Source of the DNA: a phage | Strand: one strand, 5' to 3' | Sequence record: OZ413487.1 | DNA length: 64,000 nucleotides | Part shown: piece after piece, positions 8,608 through 27,081 of the stretch | Position numbering within the stretch: the stretch's first letter is position 1 | How the letters are laid out: every line of letters begins with the position of its first letter | Made by a program: the position numbers and the translations under genes | The notes under the pieces: generated by a model | The model's database searches: none | What the model saw: the letters and a program-made list of their open reading frames with translations, nothing else | Told to the model about the DNA's origin: nothing

Positions 8608-8874
8608 ATGAAACTAACTCAGTTTTTATGGGGACTGGTTGCGGCATCTGATGACCCTACGAAAGTGTCCCAAACTAAGCTATGGTCGAACATAGGCATG
8701 GCGGTGATGACTGGGGTGTTTATTCATATGGGGTATAATGATACGCTTCCTGAATGGTATGCGTGGATATACGCGCCTTCAGTAGCTTGCCCCCAGCTTA
8801 TTAGCAAATTCATCTCGCTCCGGTGGGGTTGCCAGCACCCTGACCACGTTAAAAACGAAGAGCAAAAAGCTTAA
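8608..8874 (+). CDS. small membrane protein
   Basis: 88 aa with a hydrophobic helix (IGMAVMTGVFIHMGY); RBS GAGGG. Confidence 0.5.
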   Translation: MKLTQFLWGLVAASDDPTKVSQTKLWSNIGMAVMTGVFIHMGYNDTLPEWYAWIYAPSVACPQLISKFISLRWGCQHPDHVKNEEQKA

Positions 8875-8883
8875 GGAGAAATC

Positions 8884-10629
8884 ATGGCGCAAGACATGAC
8901 AAGCTTTGAGCAGGCGGTAGATCAAGTAATTGTTGATTCTGAACGTTTGCACCTGATTGTCAACGGTAACGCTGTGGATGAAGTTGTCGTAGAGGATGGG
9001 ACCACCATCCCTACGGTACGAAAAGCCATGCTTGACACCCTTTATTTTAAAACGCCACCGATCCCTTGGGCGTATGGTGCATCCACAACAGTTTTTAACC
9101 AGCTGTACGAGTTTAAAGGGGACACAGGCCCTCAGTGGTGGTACGCTCCCGCAGCATCAAAATCTAACCCGGTTAGAATGCCAGCAGATCCTTCACAATC
9201 TCCAAACTGGAGATTATATACCGATTCTGCAGTAATGGCAAAATACTACGCAAAACTTAACAGTCCGAGGTTCGAAGGTGACCCGCGAGTACCTACGCCT
9301 CCAATGGACGACAAATCCGAGTCTATAGCAAACACAGAGTTTGTTGTTGACTATGTGGATAGCATATTTGAAGCCATGGAGGGAATGAAAGTTACTGTAG
9401 GGTCTTTGGTGGTAAAAGGTCTTACAGAACTTGCTAACACTATAGTTGGTGGCACACTCACCTTACATGGGCCTGTTAATGGAGCAGATTCTACTGCACG
9501 CTTCAGGAACCTAATCCTCACGGCAAATACTTCTACACTTACTTTTGCGTGGAGTGATCCTAAGCATGCAGACTGGAGAAGCACAGAGCTGCAACCTCAT
9601 GAAGTGTCCACCCACAGGGTTATAGCTGACACTATAACTTCTGGGAAACCAGTGGCTAATAATAACGATGTGCATTTTGATGGTCTAGGTAATAACTTTT
9701 TTGACTACGTGTACATTCGTGGTAATGCCATGAAGGCAGCAACCGAACCGACATTGCAGGTAGATGGAACCACCAGGGTTAAGAACCTTGAGGTGACAGG
9801 CACTGTTACAGGGATAACCTACTCTGTCGATGGCACCATGATTTACCCTAGCTATATTGAAAGCACGGGGGACGCATTAATAAATGGTGATTTAGAAGTT
9901 GGCGGATCTGTAGTTATTCGAGGTACAGCCTCTATCCAAAACATAGCTCTGAATACCCTAAGAGTCAATGAGCGTGCAACTTTTGAAGGGGAAGGGCTTA
10001 CAGCCAACAAAGGTGTAATTACCGAGCTGACAACCACTACTTTAACTGCAACAACTGCAAACTCTGAAAACTGCAACGTTACCAGAAACTTGCAGGTAAA
10101 TGGAGATGTTAGTTTAAACGCAGCAGGGACGGGCACCACCTACCTTCACAACCTTGAAATATCCGGCACAGTGACTGGGTGGCTGCCAGACTTCTCTAAT
10201 GTCAACTTTGTTTGTAATGGCATTAACTCCAGTGGCAAGATAACCACCTCTCAAGAAATTGAGGCGGGTAAAACCATTACTGCCCCTACTTTCCACGCAG
10301 GAAAGGTAGATTTTGATTTAGAGGAGGTTGACGCGTCCAGTGGGACATGGACACCTAACGGGCAGGCCAGTATGTATGTTGTCCACGCGAAAGGGGATTT
10401 TACAATAGGACAATGGCCTGGTACATCAGCGGAAGATAAACCTTATCCATTCACTGCGGTTATCTATGTCATTCAGGATGCTGTAGGTCACAACGTGACT
10501 TTGCACGATAAGTATGCTATCCTGTCGGCAACGCCTGTTATTAATAACAAGGCTAATAGTGTTACCTTGCTGCAATTAACATATTGTGGTGTTGGTGATA
10601 TCGTAGACGTAGTAATTGCACAACGTTAA
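8884..10629 (+). CDS. tail fiber / tail spike protein (581 aa)
   Basis: Long beta-rich ORF with T/G/N-rich repeats, RBS GGAGAA, in the fiber module, followed by a terminator. Confidence 0.6.
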   Translation: MAQDMTSFEQAVDQVIVDSERLHLIVNGNAVDEVVVEDGTTIPTVRKAMLDTLYFKTPPIPWAYGASTTVFNQLYEFKGDTGPQWWYAPAASKSNPVRMPADPSQSPNWRLYTDSAVMAKYYAKLNSPRFEGDPRVPTPPMDDKSESIANTEFVVDYVDSIFEAMEGMKVTVGSLVVKGLTELANTIVGGTLTLHGPVNGADSTARFRNLILTANTSTLTFAWSDPKHADWRSTELQPHEVSTHRVIADTITSGKPVANNNDVHFDGLGNNFFDYVYIRGNAMKAATEPTLQVDGTTRVKNLEVTGTVTGITYSVDGTMIYPSYIESTGDALINGDLEVGGSVVIRGTASIQNIALNTLRVNERATFEGEGLTANKGVITELTTTTLTATTANSENCNVTRNLQVNGDVSLNAAGTGTTYLHNLEISGTVTGWLPDFSNVNFVCNGINSSGKITTSQEIEAGKTITAPTFHAGKVDFDLEEVDASSGTWTPNGQASMYVVHAKGDFTIGQWPGTSAEDKPYPFTAVIYVIQDAVGHNVTLHDKYAILSATPVINNKANSVTLLQLTYCGVGDIVDVVIAQR

Positions 10630-10637
10630 TATATATC

Positions 10638-10667
10638 TAACCGCTCCTGACGGGGCGGTTTTCTTAT
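10638..10667 (+). terminator. rho-independent terminator
   Basis: CCGCTCC / GGGGCGG stem followed by TTTTCTT. Confidence 0.7.
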
Positions 10668-10679
10668 CTGGAGAACACA

Positions 10680-13600
10680 ATGCTTCCAATCCCTTTGCTA
10701 AAACTTGGTCGTCATTTCCTCGATAAGAGGGGTGGAATTAAGGAACTTGCTGTTCTGTCATACCCAATAGACAACAGTGATGGTACAAGCAACACAGTAT
10801 CCTATGTAAATAGCTTAGCTATACTTTTTGATGATGGTCAGCTTAATATTACTGGCTATAATAGGTTCGGAGAGTGTCGGACTGGAGATCTTGATACAAT
10901 AAACTATCCTAATGAGGCAGCTTGGAACGTAGACCATGTTTGGAGAGCTGACCGTGCATTTGTAATCCGCACATTCGATAATAAATTTTTCTATATTGGT
11001 TGCACAGCTGGTCTTATCGGATCGGAGGCAGCAGGTGGAAACGATGTTTGTGTCAGAGAGTGGACACCTTTGCCGGAACAGATCGTAACAGGGTTGCATT
11101 TGGACACCCATCCTGAGAGACTTGTTGAAGTAATGGGTGGCGTAAACAATACAGTGTGGGTAATTGCTGCACCAGAGGCTGATGGTATGCTTCACCTGTA
11201 CGGCTCTGGCAATAATACTTACGGCTCTCTTCATGTTGACAAAAGTCAACACGCTACTCCAGTTAAGATCGGTGAAACATCTGAAAGTCCAGAGACAGGT
11301 CCTTGGAAAAATCCAAGAATTAATTGTGAAGTTCATGACAACTCGGTTATTTTTGGTGGTCCTAACGGATTCTGGATTGCAGGTTACGATTTCTTAAGAA
11401 ATAACAGCAAAAACACACTAGTTTATCCAGCCGAGCATGTGACTCTTGACCAGTTTAAAGGCATCCCGGTGGGCGAGACATGGAAAGGGTTCATGTGTGG
11501 ACCTAATGGTGCAATTATAGCCACAGAAAGGATGCACAAACCTGATGACCAACAGCTTGTTAACGTATTCTACGGGCAAGACGTCTGGGGAGATGACACA
11601 TGGCGTTCCTTAAATATCACCTACACCCATGAGGTGATAATGGCTCGTGGATACGGCACAAGTGGCATTTTCTTCAATAATGGCACTAAACAGTATCGTG
11701 GATTCTCTCGCAACTTGTGTAATGATATTGGTGCACAATCTGCAAACAATAGCCCTAGGGCTAATTTTATCCACTATCAGGCTCTTGCTACAGCTAAATA
11801 TGTTGAGCAACGCCTGCCAGTTAGCTGGACAGAGAGTGTTTATTTCCAAGGCATCCACAGGGAAGGTTTCTTAGGAACCTTTACTGTTGTTAATGGCAAA
11901 CTTTGGTGGTCAGGCATCCCAAGGGGGAGTTTTGCAGGATCTAACAACCTCTTTGGCGGCAGACTTAACAGCCAAGGGTTCACAGAGATTCCGGAGAATT
12001 GGTATAAAAATGTCCCGGTAGATAGCTGGGGTATCGAAGACATCTTTGATGTCAATGGTGTGAGCAATGTTAGCAACATTTACATCGGAGATACTGTCAA
12101 GATGAAATTGAAACCTCAGCCGGAGGGTGCTACGTTCATTATTGACAAGATTGAGTTGGTAAATGCTGCAGGCACTGTTGTTACAGATGCAAACTATCAG
12201 TTCTCCACTAACTGGAACCATGGTGGTGCTAACGAAGTTGTGGTCACCCAGTATAACCGTAACATCAACAGACGTGGTTTGTATTCTATCAAGATCACCT
12301 ACCATGACAAGCATGGCACTGGAAGAACCTGTACGACAAGGACTTTGAACTGGAACACTATAGTTCCTGCGTATCCGTCCAACGGCAAGTGGCATACCGT
12401 TGGTAGAAACAAGCAGTTCCATGTTAACGATACTGTATACTTTGGGCTGAATGGGACCCAGCCTGCAGTAGAAGGGGATACATCGTATATGGTCAGACTC
12501 CACAGAATGGATGCTGGATCAGTCACTTATGATGTGACCCAAGAGATCTACGATCAAAGACGCGCCACGTATGACAATATTGTGAAAACACAAGCCTTGT
12601 GGAAGTTCAATCCTAATGGCAAGGGTGGTAAAATGTTGCAGGTTAATGAGCAGAACGGAACGTCGTTGACTGTTCACGAACACCCAGACCCTTGGCCTGA
12701 TCCTGGAAAACCTCACCCGGGAGCTCGTACACTGAAAATTGTCAGCCATGATGCAGGGTATTTCGGAATACGCTGGGAAGCTACAGTAAGATATGTCGAC
12801 GGGACAACAAACAACATAGGGATTACACTTGGCGGCACTAGTGAAGATAACTCGCTGAAAATTGCCTACACGCCTAGAGGTATCTCTATTGATAATATGG
12901 ATGTTGTTCGCAATGGTTACGGCGATGTGAATGTCAAAGTTACTCTTGGCGAACATCTTGGTGGGGAAAGGATCATCATGTATGCCTTTGATCATGATCC
13001 ACGCACCAATGGAACTTATGCAAATCAGGCATGGAGTTACCTGATAAATGCACCTGAGCCGAATACTAAAGAGTTCTACTATGGTATGAAGCGAGATGTG
13101 TGCAAGAAAACAGGAACACATGACTGGATTGCTATCTGCGTTAAAGATGAGCGCACAGCTTGGGATGAGCCTGTTAACAGATGGTTCATAGGTATTCCTA
13201 CCAGAAGTGATAAGTATGTCGCAGAATATATTGTATGCATGGGCGGTACCAACCTAAACATGTGTTGGAACGAAGATGTAAACAAATACTCTGATTATGA
13301 CTATATGAGGGATTACTCTTGTAATTTGTGGTTTAACCAAACTACAGGTTACCCTCCGCGTCAGGCAAGGGTAAATCCTGCAATCTTTACAGATACGCAG
13401 GTTTTCTTGACAAAACAGGCCAACGAGGTTCAGACCTTCAAGAATAACTATGACCCTAACAAGTGGTTCTACAACTGTTACGGCGCATTTTTCTGGGGAC
13501 CTGGTGAGTTACCTGGTGGAGGATCTTGCTTGAATGAGGCAACTTACGCCAGTGACTACATCATGGGGCAGGTCAAGAAGTATAAGATAATCCCCGGTCC

Positions 13601-16316
13601 TGAGACTCTGGGCAATGCCGTTGACCCTTATATCATCATGACTGCACTGAGATCAAACATGGACGGGACATCCATGTCTATGCAAATTCCGGTAACAAAC
13701 GGGTACAAACGTGTTGTGATGATCATTAAGTGCGATCTGATCGGGAAGCAAGTTCTTGCAGAAAACGGGACATCCACACATCCTTTTGAGATCGCTCTGC
13801 ACTATCAGTTTGCTGACTCACCTTTTGCAGGGGATAAGAGAATATCTGATACAGACGCACAGCGTTGTAAGAAAGTATTGTTGGGTGCAGGTTGGTGGTG
13901 GTATGAGTTTGATTTAACAGACAAATTCACCGACACGTCTAAAGTTGTAACAGGACTTCGTCTAGACCTTGGCGAGAACATGCACAAAGCTGTTTGTGAT
14001 GGCACCTATGGTGACCCTACAATATACCTAAAATATGTTTCTTTTGAGCATCCGGAAGATGTTGTCTACGGTCCAAAACTGAGATTGTTTGGCAGCTGGA
14101 TTGCAAAAGATAGGGTAGGCATGGGTAAGAAGGTAAGAGGGCTCTTGGTTGATGCAGGAACAGAAGACATGCTGGTTAATGCAGTGTGGCCTGAATTACC
14201 TGGGACTCAGTGGGACAACTCAGCCAAATCTATAAACTGGTTTAACATTCATAGGGCCATGTGGACCACTAACTGCTACTTGTGGAGAGAGCTTAACGAT
14301 CAGGCCTTTGGATTCAGCGATGGTAGAAGGATGGCGATCATTTGCTGGACAACACTGCAAAGATGTTATGACCATGACTATGAGATTGGGGGCAGGGCAT
14401 GGAAAAATATCAGGGATAGAATCATAACCAATTTTGCAGACGACAACGGTGGTGGAGCACATAACTTTGGCACAAGCCGACTCATCCATTTGAACGGATC
14501 CTCAGCCTACAAGAAAGAAGGTTACTCTGGGTCTATGATCGAGTGGGGTCTGGTGAAAGATGCTCGCGTATTGATGGGCCAGCAACTTGCTGCCGCAATA
14601 GGTCCCAGCGCAGTGCAGTCGGTTAAACCAGCGTGGTTCGATATTCCATTGTGGTCACCCGGAACACCGGGAACTGCTGCAATCAACCCTACCACTGGGG
14701 ATCTAGAAATCTCCTGGGAGGACTTGAAGCAGGTCGGTGGTTGGGACAAAACAGGGTACCAGGTTCAGTGGTGGAGAGCTGATGGATCTTTAGCTGCTGA
14801 TGAGTTTGTTAAGGACAATTTCTACACTATGTCCTCTGCAAAAGCACAGCAATTATTTGGTCAGGCAACTCCGTCAACGATCACCATGTCTATGTGCTGT
14901 AAAGACAACAGGACTGGAGCTTTGGGGCCAAGGGTTGCTAAAGTTTTCTCAGGTATTAAATGGAATCTACCTGTCCAAAGTATTTCATGGAAGCAAATAG
15001 GTGATAACAAGCTGCTGGTTACCCCTGCCTGTCAGTTCAACGCAACTCTTAACGTTGATCCTGCTGTTGCGGCAAACTCAGCTAAAGCTTCTGACTTCTC
15101 TGTGTCTAACACTGCTATGGCAGATGTGAGGAAGATTGACACGCTGAACGCCAGAATTACCTGTAAAAACACTTATGGCACATTCCAGATCATCAACAAC
15201 TTCACAGATGCTGATTCTAAGGTAGTGAGGACAGCAAGCCAGACTTTGAGTTTAGGAACTCTGGCCTATGCGGCCCTGATCACTGAACAGTCGGCAACAC
15301 TCCAAGGAGGTGGTGTAGGCAAGTCCATTACAACACCTGTGTGGAAGCCAAATGAGTGGGTTGTGTTTGATTTGACTGTGGACTTCTCCAGCGATAATAA
15401 CTGGACATGGGTAAGGAATTGTTTGTCACAGTTGATGGGCGGTCCAAGCTCCGTTAGTGATAGTCACGACTCTACTGACCCGAGTGTGTTCCAGGTAGGT
15501 AAAACTCACCCAGAGACTGGAGAAACGTTGCCTGACAGGAAGTATGCTTTGGTTTGCATCTCTTACGGGAAGGCAGATGTCACCTTCTCAGGGACACACA
15601 CTTATAACGGAACCTACAACTTCTCAAGGAAGTATAGTCTCAAAGCAGGGAACATTATAGACGAGGTTGGTGTGCTGTATAATCCGGGCAACGGCATAGG
15701 GATTGTTGGTGGTAAACTGCAGATGCAGGAACCTTCTATTACCCCTTCCAACGTATCCGGGATTAGAAAGACTTGGGAAAGTAGTAATACCAACATTGCA
15801 ACAGTGGATGCCACCACAGGACTGGTAACATTTAAAGCTACTGGGAATGTCACCATAAAGTTTGTAGTTACAGATGATGCAGGGCGCAAAACGTCTTCAA
15901 CATCTTTTACTGTCAAACAGATGGCACCACAGTGGAGAATGTGGATAGGTACAGCAACAAACGGGGCATACCCTAATCCGGCAGGTACTTCTGGTATGAA
16001 GACTTTCTCTACAAGCAAACCGATGGAGTACGGCAGCGGTCCTAAGGTAGGGCAGATGGTGTACTTTGGTGCGTATATTCCTGAAATTATAGGGCTTCCG
16101 AGAAGTCAGCTTCAGTTGCTGTTTGGGGCTGGTGTTGACGATCTTGCCACTTTCGGGTATAGCGACAACATCGAGGCTGCAAGGAGTTCAGGATGGGTAG
16201 GGTTCAGAATGGAGTCTGGAAAGGAAGGCAGGATTCTAGGGACAGCCTCTATAGGTGTTATGTTCCCTGGTGACCAGCAGTATCGTCTAGAAGCCTACGC
16301 AACCTTTTCTCGTTAA
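10680..16316 (+). CDS. very large structural protein (1878 aa) with C-terminal Ig-like (Big_2-type) domain
   Basis: Single uninterrupted ORF with RBS GGAGAA. A C-terminal segment (ITPSNVSGIRKTWESSNTNIATVDATTGLVTFKATGNVTIKFVVTDDAGRKTSSTSFTVKQ) has the bacterial Ig-like group 2 pattern. Confidence 0.7.
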   Translation: MLPIPLLKLGRHFLDKRGGIKELAVLSYPIDNSDGTSNTVSYVNSLAILFDDGQLNITGYNRFGECRTGDLDTINYPNEAAWNVDHVWRADRAFVIRTFDNKFFYIGCTAGLIGSEAAGGNDVCVREWTPLPEQIVTGLHLDTHPERLVEVMGGVNNTVWVIAAPEADGMLHLYGSGNNTYGSLHVDKSQHATPVKIGETSESPETGPWKNPRINCEVHDNSVIFGGPNGFWIAGYDFLRNNSKNTLVYPAEHVTLDQFKGIPVGETWKGFMCGPNGAIIATERMHKPDDQQLVNVFYGQDVWGDDTWRSLNITYTHEVIMARGYGTSGIFFNNGTKQYRGFSRNLCNDIGAQSANNSPRANFIHYQALATAKYVEQRLPVSWTESVYFQGIHREGFLGTFTVVNGKLWWSGIPRGSFAGSNNLFGGRLNSQGFTEIPENWYKNVPVDSWGIEDIFDVNGVSNVSNIYIGDTVKMKLKPQPEGATFIIDKIELVNAAGTVVTDANYQFSTNWNHGGANEVVVTQYNRNINRRGLYSIKITYHDKHGTGRTCTTRTLNWNTIVPAYPSNGKWHTVGRNKQFHVNDTVYFGLNGTQPAVEGDTSYMVRLHRMDAGSVTYDVTQEIYDQRRATYDNIVKTQALWKFNPNGKGGKMLQVNEQNGTSLTVHEHPDPWPDPGKPHPGARTLKIVSHDAGYFGIRWEATVRYVDGTTNNIGITLGGTSEDNSLKIAYTPRGISIDNMDVVRNGYGDVNVKVTLGEHLGGERIIMYAFDHDPRTNGTYANQAWSYLINAPEPNTKEFYYGMKRDVCKKTGTHDWIAICVKDERTAWDEPVNRWFIGIPTRSDKYVAEYIVCMGGTNLNMCWNEDVNKYSDYDYMRDYSCNLWFNQTTGYPPRQARVNPAIFTDTQVFLTKQANEVQTFKNNYDPNKWFYNCYGAFFWGPGELPGGGSCLNEATYASDYIMGQVKKYKIIPGPETLGNAVDPYIIMTALRSNMDGTSMSMQIPVTNGYKRVVMIIKCDLIGKQVLAENGTSTHPFEIALHYQFADSPFAGDKRISDTDAQRCKKVLLGAGWWWYEFDLTDKFTDTSKVVTGLRLDLGENMHKAVCDGTYGDPTIYLKYVSFEHPEDVVYGPKLRLFGSWIAKDRVGMGKKVRGLLVDAGTEDMLVNAVWPELPGTQWDNSAKSINWFNIHRAMWTTNCYLWRELNDQAFGFSDGRRMAIICWTTLQRCYDHDYEIGGRAWKNIRDRIITNFADDNGGGAHNFGTSRLIHLNGSSAYKKEGYSGSMIEWGLVKDARVLMGQQLAAAIGPSAVQSVKPAWFDIPLWSPGTPGTAAINPTTGDLEISWEDLKQVGGWDKTGYQVQWWRADGSLAADEFVKDNFYTMSSAKAQQLFGQATPSTITMSMCCKDNRTGALGPRVAKVFSGIKWNLPVQSISWKQIGDNKLLVTPACQFNATLNVDPAVAANSAKASDFSVSNTAMADVRKIDTLNARITCKNTYGTFQIINNFTDADSKVVRTASQTLSLGTLAYAALITEQSATLQGGGVGKSITTPVWKPNEWVVFDLTVDFSSDNNWTWVRNCLSQLMGGPSSVSDSHDSTDPSVFQVGKTHPETGETLPDRKYALVCISYGKADVTFSGTHTYNGTYNFSRKYSLKAGNIIDEVGVLYNPGNGIGIVGGKLQMQEPSITPSNVSGIRKTWESSNTNIATVDATTGLVTFKATGNVTIKFVVTDDAGRKTSSTSFTVKQMAPQWRMWIGTATNGAYPNPAGTSGMKTFSTSKPMEYGSGPKVGQMVYFGAYIPEIIGLPRSQLQLLFGAGVDDLATFGYSDNIEAARSSGWVGFRMESGKEGRILGTASIGVMFPGDQQYRLEAYATFSR

Positions 16317-16329
16317 CAAGGGGGTAAAT

Positions 16330-16359
16330 AAAAAGGGGCCAAACGGCCCCTTTCTTTTT
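16330..16359. terminator. bidirectional rho-independent terminator between convergent genes
   Basis: AGGGGCC-AAAC-GGCCCCT hairpin flanked by an A-tract (5') and T-tract (3'), between the plus gene ending at 16316 and the minus gene ending at 16364. Confidence 0.8.
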
Positions 16360-25627: not shown

Positions 25628-25897
25628 ATGTTATACCAGCAATATGAACTTCGTGCAGAAAAAGAGTTAAATTTTGACAAAGATATTCACAGATATTATT
25701 ATGGGAAAGTTAGAGGGCAAGCAAGAAAGTGTACTCCAACACTCTTTTATGCCAGCAGACGACTAGCGCCAGAAGAGGCAACAGCAGAAAGGGTTGCGTA
25801 CAACTGGAGAGTCACGTATGATATTGACAGATCCGATGTGATATCTGTTTTGGAAAACTTTGAAAACACTTACACACAAGTAGAGGACTTTTACTAA
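25628..25897 (+). CDS. hypothetical protein
   Basis: 89-aa ORF with RBS AAGGAG. Confidence 0.5.
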   Translation: MLYQQYELRAEKELNFDKDIHRYYYGKVRGQARKCTPTLFYASRRLAPEEATAERVAYNWRVTYDIDRSDVISVLENFENTYTQVEDFY

Positions 25898-27081
25898 TGT
25901 CAAGAAACGTATTCGAAAGTGGTCAAATCACTGTCCGTGAGTTGCCAGCTATTATTCAGTTTGCCCAACGTCATAGCCGATCTGTCCTAATTTTGGGACC
26001 AATGGGTGTGGGTAAAAGTCAGGTGATGAAGCAGATCGCTGATAATATGTTCGGTGAGCGAGATGACAACCTTGTTGACGTGCGACTGTCAGATAAAGAT
26101 CCTGCCGACTTATCTGGGCTACCTATCCCTGTAGAGGCGGATGGAACTACACGTACAGTGTTTGCAATTCCAGAATTTTGGCCTGCGGATCCTGACTGGA
26201 GCGGAATTATCTTTCTGGATGAGCTCACTCATGCAGATAACTACCTGCAAAAGGTTGCAATGCAAATTATGCTTGACCACAAGTGCGGTACCTATGCATT
26301 CCCTAAGGGTTCTGTTTTTGTGGCTGCTGGTAACCGTTCTACAGATGGTGCGGTTCTTTCGGCGCTCGAAGCCCCTCTGGCTAACCGTTTTATCATTGTA
26401 GAGGTTACAAGCAATGCAGAGGTGTTTATTGAGGACTACGCATTCCTTAATGGGGTGCACTCCTCTGTAATTGGATATCTGAAAAGAGTTCCATCAGCTA
26501 TCGATAATTATGAGGCCATGGCTGAGATTAATTGTCCATCTTTTGCCACACCGCGATCTTGGGTTGCTGCATCTGATATCTTGCACGATTTTGACAGCGG
26601 TATTATTTCTGACGCTATGGCCCGTGTTCTTCTGCAAGGTGCTATTGGTCACACTGCAGCGGTAGAGATCTGGACATACCACACCAAGAAACGCAATTTA
26701 CCTGAAATCGGTCGGATTATGGCAGGTGGTTGCAAAGAATACGTAGGTCCTAAGCAGCCAGACATTTTGTGGATTCTTGGATCTGAAGGTTGTATCGCTA
26801 TTCGTAATATGATGGAAAATGCAAGTATCTCAGACGAAGATCTTGTCAGCTGCGTGGCAAACTTCCTCGATTTCCTTTGGGAAAACTTCAAGGACGAGAA
26901 CCGAGATTTTGTATTCTCAGTCTTTATGGCGATGATGAAACCTAATGCCTTAGGAAATGCCTTGCTTATCGGCAAAGGGCGTGACAAGATTGTTGCTCAG
27001 CTGATCAAAGCATACCCAAACCTGATGAAGATTGTAAAAGAGTTTGGTGAAGAGTTTAGCGCCATTTTGGCTAAAGCTTAA
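25897..27081 (+). CDS. MoxR-like AAA+ ATPase (AAA_5 / CobS-like)
   Basis: Walker A (LILGPMGVGKSQ), Walker B (IIFLDELTHAD) and a sensor-1-like AAGN segment, in a 394-aa protein. Confidence 0.65.
   Translation: MSRNVFESGQITVRELPAIIQFAQRHSRSVLILGPMGVGKSQVMKQIADNMFGERDDNLVDVRLSDKDPADLSGLPIPVEADGTTRTVFAIPEFWPADPDWSGIIFLDELTHADNYLQKVAMQIMLDHKCGTYAFPKGSVFVAAGNRSTDGAVLSALEAPLANRFIIVEVTSNAEVFIEDYAFLNGVHSSVIGYLKRVPSAIDNYEAMAEINCPSFATPRSWVAASDILHDFDSGIISDAMARVLLQGAIGHTAAVEIWTYHTKKRNLPEIGRIMAGGCKEYVGPKQPDILWILGSEGCIAIRNMMENASISDEDLVSCVANFLDFLWENFKDENRDFVFSVFMAMMKPNALGNALLIGKGRDKIVAQLIKAYPNLMKIVKEFGEEFSAILAKA

Follow-up and report, generated by a model that had tools for sequence, protein, structure and literature searches.

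The 64,000-nucleotide (nt) stretch of phage DNA analysed here (sequence record OZ413487.1, hereafter the window) carries, at positions 10680 to 16316 on the plus strand, an open reading frame (ORF) of 1878 amino acids (aa) that is an ortholog of gp27 of phage rV5. We propose that gp27 belongs to the tail-fibre network as an accessory adhesin, probably a single chain, which is non-essential and would improve or widen adsorption to hosts; we put the probability of this reading at about one in two. It is drawn from a gene position, last in the fibre module, that is conserved across five lineages, from the polarity of an exchangeable C-terminal tip, and from an importance that is conditional on one clinical isolate. 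The gene has been catalogued before and is present in many deposited genomes, and the window adds no new gene. What is added here is a revised domain map, the assignment of the N-terminal part as RCC1-like, a stretch of about 900 aa with no relatives outside the family, and a docking argument that is based on paired conservation.

Under this proposal, gp27 would be a late-expressed 208-kDa protein in which the peptide MLPIPLL and an RCC1-like propeller (aa ~20–440) form a conserved attachment module, docking on the C-terminal head of the trimeric fibre gp28. The approximately 900 family-specific, beta-rich residues that follow may be a spacer, or a cryptic unit that binds or modifies glycans, and the FN3-like and immunoglobulin-like (Ig-like) sandwiches (aa ~1330–1760, with one Big_2) may form a flexible stalk. 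The exchangeable tip of about 100 aa would then be the strain-specific contact. Stalk and tip would bind a surface glycan or protein of particular Escherichia coli strains, and this binding would raise adsorption on those hosts, while being unnecessary on K-12. RCC1-like propellers and Ig-like arrays are typical of single-chain adhesins, which counts against a classical trimeric fibre.

The features of gp27 are listed below. AF2 denotes AlphaFold2 and pLDDT its predicted local distance difference test score.

10680..16316, plus strand: gp27 ORF, ATG start, 1878 aa, 208 kDa, isoelectric point 6.4
10680..10703, plus strand: N-terminal peptide MLPIPLLK, with the motif M-[LFY]-P-[IF]-P common to all closing proteins compared
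10680..11999, plus strand: conserved N-terminal module, aa 1 to ~440, putative RCC1-like beta-propeller, with homology to ~aa 496
12000..13199, plus strand: beta-rich region, aa 441–840, strands predicted, low pLDDT
13200..14654, plus strand: orphan core, aa 841–1325, a confident beta-sandwich and a low-confidence helix-rich stretch
14667..14969, plus strand: FN3-like beta-sandwich, aa ~1330–1430, AF2 pLDDT 60–80, end of the part common with distant full-length homologs
15267..15959, plus strand: Ig-like/beta-sandwich array, aa ~1530–1760, AF2 pLDDT 80–94, including Big_2
15723..15878, plus strand: Pfam Big_2 (PF02368), aa 1682–1733, E 4e-8, 33.5 bits against a cut-off of 22.8
16005..16313, plus strand: exchangeable tip, allele A, aa ~1776–1878; identity to DrSchubert breaks at ~aa 1775

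Orthologs, exchangeable tip and conditional fitness

The ORF is the ortholog of rV5 gp27 (rv5_gp027, 1878 aa, 208,334 Da) of the genus Vequintavirus. In PHROGs it matches phrog_15684, the function of which is listed there as unknown, with 4527.8 bits over positions 1–1878 of 1878. Nucleotide identity of the gene is 98.4 % to Escherichia phage naam and 93 % to rV5, and ranges from 93 to 98 % across rV5 and its relatives. On the basis of this DNA identity and of the deposited relatives, the window is from a Vequintavirus (rV5-like myophage). The gene was found in 121 deposited phage records, 108 of which cover at least 80 % of it, and its product has been named 'hypothetical protein', 'Ig-like domain-containing protein' or, in the BASEL collection, 'lateral tail fiber protein with intimin domain'. 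Fifteen GenBank records (MG0656xx) named 'Campylobacter phage', with Campylobacter jejuni given as the host, also carry the gene. As they share 90–98 % nucleotide identity with rV5-like phages of E. coli, this host label looks doubtful.

Within Vequintavirus, all regions of gp27 are 84–100 % identical except for the last ~100–125 residues. Identity of this tip to that of the window is 98–100 %, about 60 % or 16 %, depending on the phage, and at least three alleles can be distinguished: A (window and rV5), B (~60 % identity; MaxBurger and Phage 203) and C (unrelated and shorter; DrSchubert). Among the deposited genomes, allele A is present in 76 records and allele B in 38. Phage receptor-binding proteins classically show this polarity, in which the N-terminus is conserved and the C-terminal tip behaves as a cassette.

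Among 12 codon-aligned orthologs, the synonymous substitution rate (dS) reached 0.9 and the ratio of nonsynonymous to synonymous rates (dN/dS) was 0.02–0.13 over aa 1 to ~1740, climbing to 0.18–0.38 only in the last ~140 residues. A ratio this low despite a dS of up to 0.9 indicates that the entire reading frame is under purifying selection in nature. Interrupted copies were nevertheless found in laboratory-propagated isolates, namely YP-6 (stop at codon 404) and EI-SP-GF (stop at codon 258), and further copies are annotated as two to four coding sequences; the interrupted records include ime, naswa, Alma, magaca, phita32, V18 and APECc02. Some of these may be sequencing errors, but interrupted copies in laboratory isolates fit dispensability of gp27 in culture.

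Transposon sequencing data (HIDEN-SEQ) are available for phage Bas54 (MaxBurger), in which the gp27 ortholog is bas54_0041. On K-12, 281 of its 336 TA sites were disrupted (10.1101/2025.11.20.689424), and the gene is therefore non-essential on this host; the genes bas54_0032–0040, including the gp28 ortholog bas54_0040, were essential (10.1101/2025.11.20.689424). On the uropathogenic isolate CFE311, insertions in bas54_0041 were depleted approximately 4.7-fold (log2 fold change, log2FC, −2.23; adjusted p < 1e-5), and other fibre genes became either fully required or dispensable on this strain (10.1101/2025.11.20.689424). Mean reads per site in bas54_0041 on K-12 were 30.9, compared with 120–700 in neighbouring dispensable genes (10.1101/2025.11.20.689424), which hints at a mild cost even on K-12. 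We note that in Extended Data Table 8 of this preprint the 'K-12 vs CFE303' sheet (S6/S7) is identical to 'K-12 vs CFE311', both being from the '311' file (10.1101/2025.11.20.689424); thus only one clinical host is documented for Bas54. The same data set touches another gene of the window. The ORF at 25897–27081 is the counterpart of the MoxR ATPase bas58_0063 (HeinrichReichert)/bas54_0063 (MaxBurger), and on E. coli CFE311 bas54_0063 was needed to get past DS-28, a predicted defence system of that strain (log2FC −7.23; 10.1101/2025.11.20.689424).

Homologs are very rare. They form 15 clusters among 5.8 billion protein clusters, and an exhaustive phmmer search with aa 1–1200 against 1.84 billion representatives returned 8 hits, all of which were family members or matches to the N-terminal module; they include one full-length representative and five partial matches. 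The distant full-length homologs, from uncultured phages, are 45–58 % identical and retain synteny. They align over aa 1 to ~1430 and diverge beyond that point.

Domain architecture of gp27

The first ~440 residues are the most conserved part of gp27, with ~75 % identity even in the distant homologs. The N-termini compared for the M-x-P-I-P start were those of Vequintavirus, Seunavirus, Phapecoctavirus, Justusliebigvirus and uncultured relatives. Alignment of gp27 aa 1–496 with the phrog_11922-type family using hhalign gave a probability of 99.9 % (E 7e-32); the module thus recurs in the shorter 'tail protein' that closes the fibre genes in three related genera. Members of that family exceed the Pfam RCC1-repeat cut-off (24–31 bits against 21.7), and its profile matches the solved RCC1-like domains of HERC2 (3KCI, E 2.9e-7), RPGR and RCC2. 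The RCC1-like repeat beta-propeller models in Pfam are PF00415 and PF25390. When gp27 was searched alone, the matches to WD40_RLD (E 4e-4, 20.2 bits, cut-off 150) and RCC1_2 (13.7 bits, cut-off 22) were below threshold; a sub-threshold WD40_RLD match was found in 12 of 16 family members. Residues ~20–440 are called RCC1-like on account of the hhalign result together with the RCC1 and RLD matches of the phrog_11922 family, a transitive profile argument that is indirect but strong and that points to a beta-propeller here. Literature searches for RCC1-type phage tail proteins and for evolved host-range mutants of rV5 gave nothing specific.

The AF2 model of aa 941–1878 has a mean pLDDT of 59.5 and is partly confident. 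In this half lies the only significant Pfam domain of full-length gp27, Big_2, which passes the gathering cut-off and scores 38.1 bits when its segment is scanned alone. The initial annotation placed a Big_2-like domain near residues 1600–1680; the domain was correctly recognized, but it lies about 80 residues further on. Beta-sandwich domains other than Big_2 do appear at ~aa 1530–1680 in the AlphaFold model. The Ig-like domain was also described as C-terminal, which is incorrect, as the variable tip of ~100–125 aa comes after Big_2. The tip itself is modelled as a small beta domain (aa ~1770–1878, pLDDT 55–78).

Fold searches with the C-terminal half retrieved only tandem Ig-like arrays, with low TM-scores and no match that identifies the core. 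These were protocadherins, S-layer proteins, Leptospira Lig proteins, intimin, the lambda gpV C-domain, N4 gp65, Hoc-like proteins and Big_2-CBM56. A search with the C-terminal 448 aa recovered only family fragments and unrelated Big_2 proteins. PF26918, which is listed for gp27 homologs, co-occurs with Big_2 in unrelated proteins and was therefore treated as another Ig-like model. Membership of the intimin/invasin family was considered and rejected, because the only match was a 49-aa Big_2-type intimin match and no other intimin/invasin Pfam domains were present.

In composition, gp27 is rich in G, T, V and N, and no internal repeats, transmembrane segments or signal peptide were found in the sequence. 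The initial annotation described the protein as beta-rich with no coiled coil, and this largely holds: predicted strands dominate and the longest predicted helix is 26 residues. That helix lies in a helix-rich stretch at aa ~1126–1321, which is predicted with low confidence.

Between the N-terminal module and the FN3-like sandwich, approximately 900 residues of gp27 are without a relative outside the gp27 family. For aa ~440–1330, no match was found in Pfam, PDB sequences or large protein collections, and tblastn among 50,697 deposited phage records found this region in Vequintavirus only. A profile of aa 841–1330 retrieved nothing outside the family in 5.8 billion protein clusters, nor in the PDB, and a Pfam scan of gp27 segments and of all family members revealed no family matching the middle region. 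AF2 predicts a beta-sandwich at aa ~970–1125 (nt 13587–14054, pLDDT 70–85), followed by the helix-rich stretch, which has many invariant W, C, H, D and E residues. Motifs that are invariant in alignments of the orphan core are EDMLVNAVWP, INWFNxHRAMW, EIGGRxW and SMIEWG.

The many invariant D, E, H, W and C residues, grouped in these short motifs, would be in line with a cryptic enzyme at aa ~840–1325, a depolymerase or esterase acting on surface glycans with the Ig-like domains as carbohydrate-binding helpers. Glycosidase or deacetylase domains are present in fibre proteins encoded nearby in this phage group, and gp153 of phi92, which occupies the same genomic slot, is weakly similar to sialate acetylesterase (E 0.008, below the cut-off). 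However, no enzyme family was matched in Pfam, PHROGs, PDB sequences or the 5.8 billion protein clusters, AF2 confidence in the helix-rich part is very low, and the fold matches are to non-catalytic accessory domains. An enzymatic core, although compatible with the adhesin proposal, is therefore regarded as decidedly unlikely.

The closing slot and the possible place of gp27 in the particle

The gp27 ORF is by far the largest in the window (the runner-up is 809 aa), as the initial annotation stated, and it is the final plus-strand gene of the tail-fibre module; the genes beyond it are on the minus strand. The immediately surrounding features are as follows.

8884..10629, plus strand: upstream fibre gene, ortholog of rV5 gp28, 581 aa, PHROG tail fibre families phrog_4549 and phrog_15437
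10312..10626, plus strand: conserved C-terminal head of gp28, aa 477–581, proposed docking head
10639..10660, plus strand: intrinsic-terminator-like hairpin between gp28 and gp27, 9-bp stem, 6 G-C pairs, T run
10670..10673, plus strand: ribosome-binding site GGAG, 6 nt 5' of the gp27 ATG, read from the sequence
16332..16353, plus strand: terminator hairpin closing the plus-strand structural operon, 9-bp stem, 6 G-C pairs, T run

A Rho-independent terminator is annotated in the rV5 record at the spot matching 16332–16353. The gap between gp28 and gp27 is 50 nt and holds the strong hairpin at 10639–10660, so that gp27 may be made by read-through, at a level below that of the essential upstream fibre genes. 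The expected neighbours are present, namely baseplate wedge proteins, a fibre with a TIM-barrel glycosidase/deacetylase (gp34), two Mu-like short fibres with a chaperone, an 88-aa membrane protein and the 581-aa fibre gp28. The 88-aa predicted membrane protein (phrog_1322, window 8608–8874) lies inside the tail-fibre module just before gp28, and phrog_1322 proteins precede the upstream fibre in Vequintavirus, Seunavirus and phi92. Its ortholog bas54_0039 had 0 of 19 TA sites hit and is essential (10.1101/2025.11.20.689424). At the start of the window, an ORF at 46–1119, cut by the window boundary, matches Pfam Phage_Tail_Tip and aligns with the C-terminal end of the 1199–1279-aa FN3-type lateral fibre (rV5 gp37).

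The last slot of the fibre module holds a closing protein in Vequintavirus, an uncultured relative, Phapecoctavirus, Seunavirus and phi92. Outside the gp27 family, these proteins are shorter.

Phapecoctavirus closing protein: 890 aa, propeller, Big_2 and a variable end
Seunavirus closing protein: 567–595 aa
phi92 closing protein gp152: 202 aa, two Big_2 domains and no propeller, followed by gp153

In phi92, gp152 begins MYPIPLF and is followed by a 166-nt gap and then by gp153, which lacks a ribosome-binding site (compared stretch 13321–14983). The gp152/gp153 pair may represent a split or degraded closing gene.

The fibre encoded upstream of the closing gene shows a complementary pattern. In all of these lineages it ends in one and the same domain of ~100 aa, which is 48–51 % identical between the window and Phapecoctavirus or phi92, and the rest of these fibres cannot be aligned. 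A conserved C-terminal head is the reverse of the usual pattern of fibre conservation. The M-x-P-I-P start and the upstream fibre head are both kept across four genera, and the remainder of both proteins differs. Conservation of a fibre head together with the N-terminus of the next gene product suggests that the head may be an adaptor for the closing protein, and on this comparison gp27 may dock on the C-terminal head of gp28.

A tentative extension, which we consider possible but on balance doubtful, is that gp27 is a single-chain 208-kDa adhesin, not a fibre, plugged onto the gp28 head through the M-x-P-I-P peptide, the RCC1-like propeller or both, and that this is a fibre-on-fibre branching adaptor common to Vequintavirus, Seunavirus, Phapecoctavirus and phi92-like phages. 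If so, and if the fibre concerned (class TC8) is gp28, it would explain unassigned density at a fibre head in electron cryo-microscopy (cryo-EM) of Bas49/Bas54. The closing slot would then take interchangeable effector modules in the manner of a plug-in site, such as the orphan core in gp27, an esterase-like domain in phi92 and DUF285 repeats in certain relatives.

The suggestion in the initial annotation of a giant fibre, adhesin or host-specificity protein agrees with the slot, the polarity of the tip and the effect on CFE311, except that none of the signatures of a classical trimeric fibre were found. A canonical homotrimeric lateral tail fibre, attached directly to the baseplate wedge and forming one of the three visualized fibre sets, would fit the BASEL annotation, the location of the gene within the fibre module and a C-terminal tip that varies. 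Pfam and PHROG scans, however, revealed no coiled coil, collagen, beta-helix, foldon, peptidase S74 chaperone or Tail_spike_N in gp27, whereas gp151 of phi92, encoded next to the closing protein of that phage, does show trimerization signatures. No chaperone gene follows gp27, the next gene being on the opposite strand, and its recognizable modules are a propeller and Ig-like arrays. The cryo-EM study of Bas49/Bas54 fitted three other fibres, with gp27 not among them, and gp27 is dispensable where the neighbouring fibre genes 0032–0040 are essential. We regard a homotrimeric fibre as unlikely.

A role as a tape-measure protein, which would be long, mostly alpha-helical and encoded between the tail chaperones and the baseplate genes, was rejected, in agreement with the initial annotation. 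The protein is predominantly beta, its gene lies after the fibre genes, and the tape measure of rV5 is gp49.

Dispensability in the laboratory and an Ig-like array also recall Hoc, and gp27 could decorate the head, neck or whiskers, where the array would let the particle cling weakly to mucus or debris. PHROGs files phrog_215, to which the C-terminal 290 aa match, under 'head and packaging', and Hoc and Hoc-like capsid proteins are among the fold matches. In all five lineages, however, the gene closes the tail-fibre operon and is well separated from the head genes, and the N-terminal module is common to proteins annotated as tail proteins. The fitness effect is specific to the host strain, and the capsid models of phi92 list only the major capsid and cement proteins. 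A Hoc-like decoration is accordingly a poor candidate.

Several points weigh against a fibre-borne adhesin. The initial annotation proposed that gp27 be sought in virions, and mass spectrometry of rV5 virions does list it, with 3 peptides, 9 spectra and 3.1 % coverage (PMC3606486). The peptides are non- or semi-tryptic, with cross-correlation scores (XCorr) of 2.65–3.2 (PMC3606486), and the main text of that study omits gp27 from the proteins detected (PMC3606486). This answers the question weakly and is weak support for gp27 in virions. Cryo-EM of two Vequintavirus phages (Bas49/Bas54) and of phi92 assigned no density to the gp27 protein, and the phi92 and phiTE cryo-EM papers place no gp27 homolog. 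Only one preprint documents the fitness effect on CFE311, and the effect is partial. The docking idea is purely comparative. With the terminator hairpin between them, gp28 and gp27 need not be made in matching amounts. In phi92 the propeller has been lost but the M-x-P-I-P start and the upstream fibre head remain, so that any docking may be anchored by the peptide instead of by the propeller. Finally, the AF2 model of aa 1–960, built on a 16-sequence family alignment, has a mean pLDDT of 40.7, at which the secondary structure is a rough guide, and the seven blades are not seen directly.

Weak mass-spectrometry evidence, a terminator upstream of gp27 and the lack of assigned cryo-EM density would also be compatible with a protein that is not part of the virion, for example a decoy or biofilm-binding factor that is soluble or released at lysis, the peptides in virions being carry-over. 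Against this, gp27 has no signal peptide or transmembrane segment, its position and orientation in a late structural operon are conserved, and its polarity of conservation is that of a receptor-binding protein. In addition, insertions in the gene act in cis on fitness in a pooled infection, which argues against a shared, freely diffusing product. We consider a non-virion protein highly improbable.

Taken as a whole, the initial observation is partly confirmed and the interpretation placed on it is partly supported.

Significance and comparison with known systems

A broad host range, put down to a many-fibred 'Swiss army knife', is the reason that phages related to rV5 are applied against E. 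coli O157 and included in therapy cocktails. The matching of genes to appendages is not yet settled in these phages, and gp27 is the largest gene of the locus. Placing it as an accessory adhesin with an exchangeable tip, together with its docking site, would help to explain strain-specific adsorption, for example on uropathogenic isolates, and host-range engineering would gain a modular site that the phage can do without. The value of this analysis lies in the domain map and the docking hypothesis.

With T4 Hoc, the C-terminal domain of lambda gpV and the N4 gp65 sheath protein, gp27 shares Ig-like sandwiches, a match at the level of the fold only. Accessory proteins of this kind, as reportedly described by Fraser and colleagues in 2006, display their Ig-like sandwiches on the virion, can be spared in laboratory culture and probably bind surface carbohydrates weakly. 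Unlike gp27, Hoc, gpV and gp65 have a known location, on the capsid or tail tube; they are far smaller and have no counterpart of its putative propeller. Compared with the intimin/invasin adhesins, gp27 lacks the beta-barrel anchor, the LysM domain and the C-type lectin tip, and only the Ig-like fold, present in both, underlies the 'intimin domain' label.

The resemblance to the phrog_11922 'tail protein' family (Mt1B1_P17 gp118, GAP31 gp232 and PVP-SE1 gp40) extends to the gene position, last in the fibre module, to the M-x-P-I-P start and to the homologous, putatively RCC1-like module. In Phapecoctavirus and Seunavirus, the phrog_11922 proteins continue after the N-terminal module with Big_2 domains and a variable C-terminus. 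They are 570–890 aa, whereas gp27 has ~1000 extra residues (aa ~500–1530) that are seen nowhere else. The window protein, rV5 gp27 and bas5x_0041 (phrog_15684) are full-length orthologs of the same length in the same genomic slot. From some other members of phrog_15684 the window differs only in the allele of the tip, which is A, as in rV5, whereas MaxBurger (Bas54) has B and DrSchubert a third, shorter tip.

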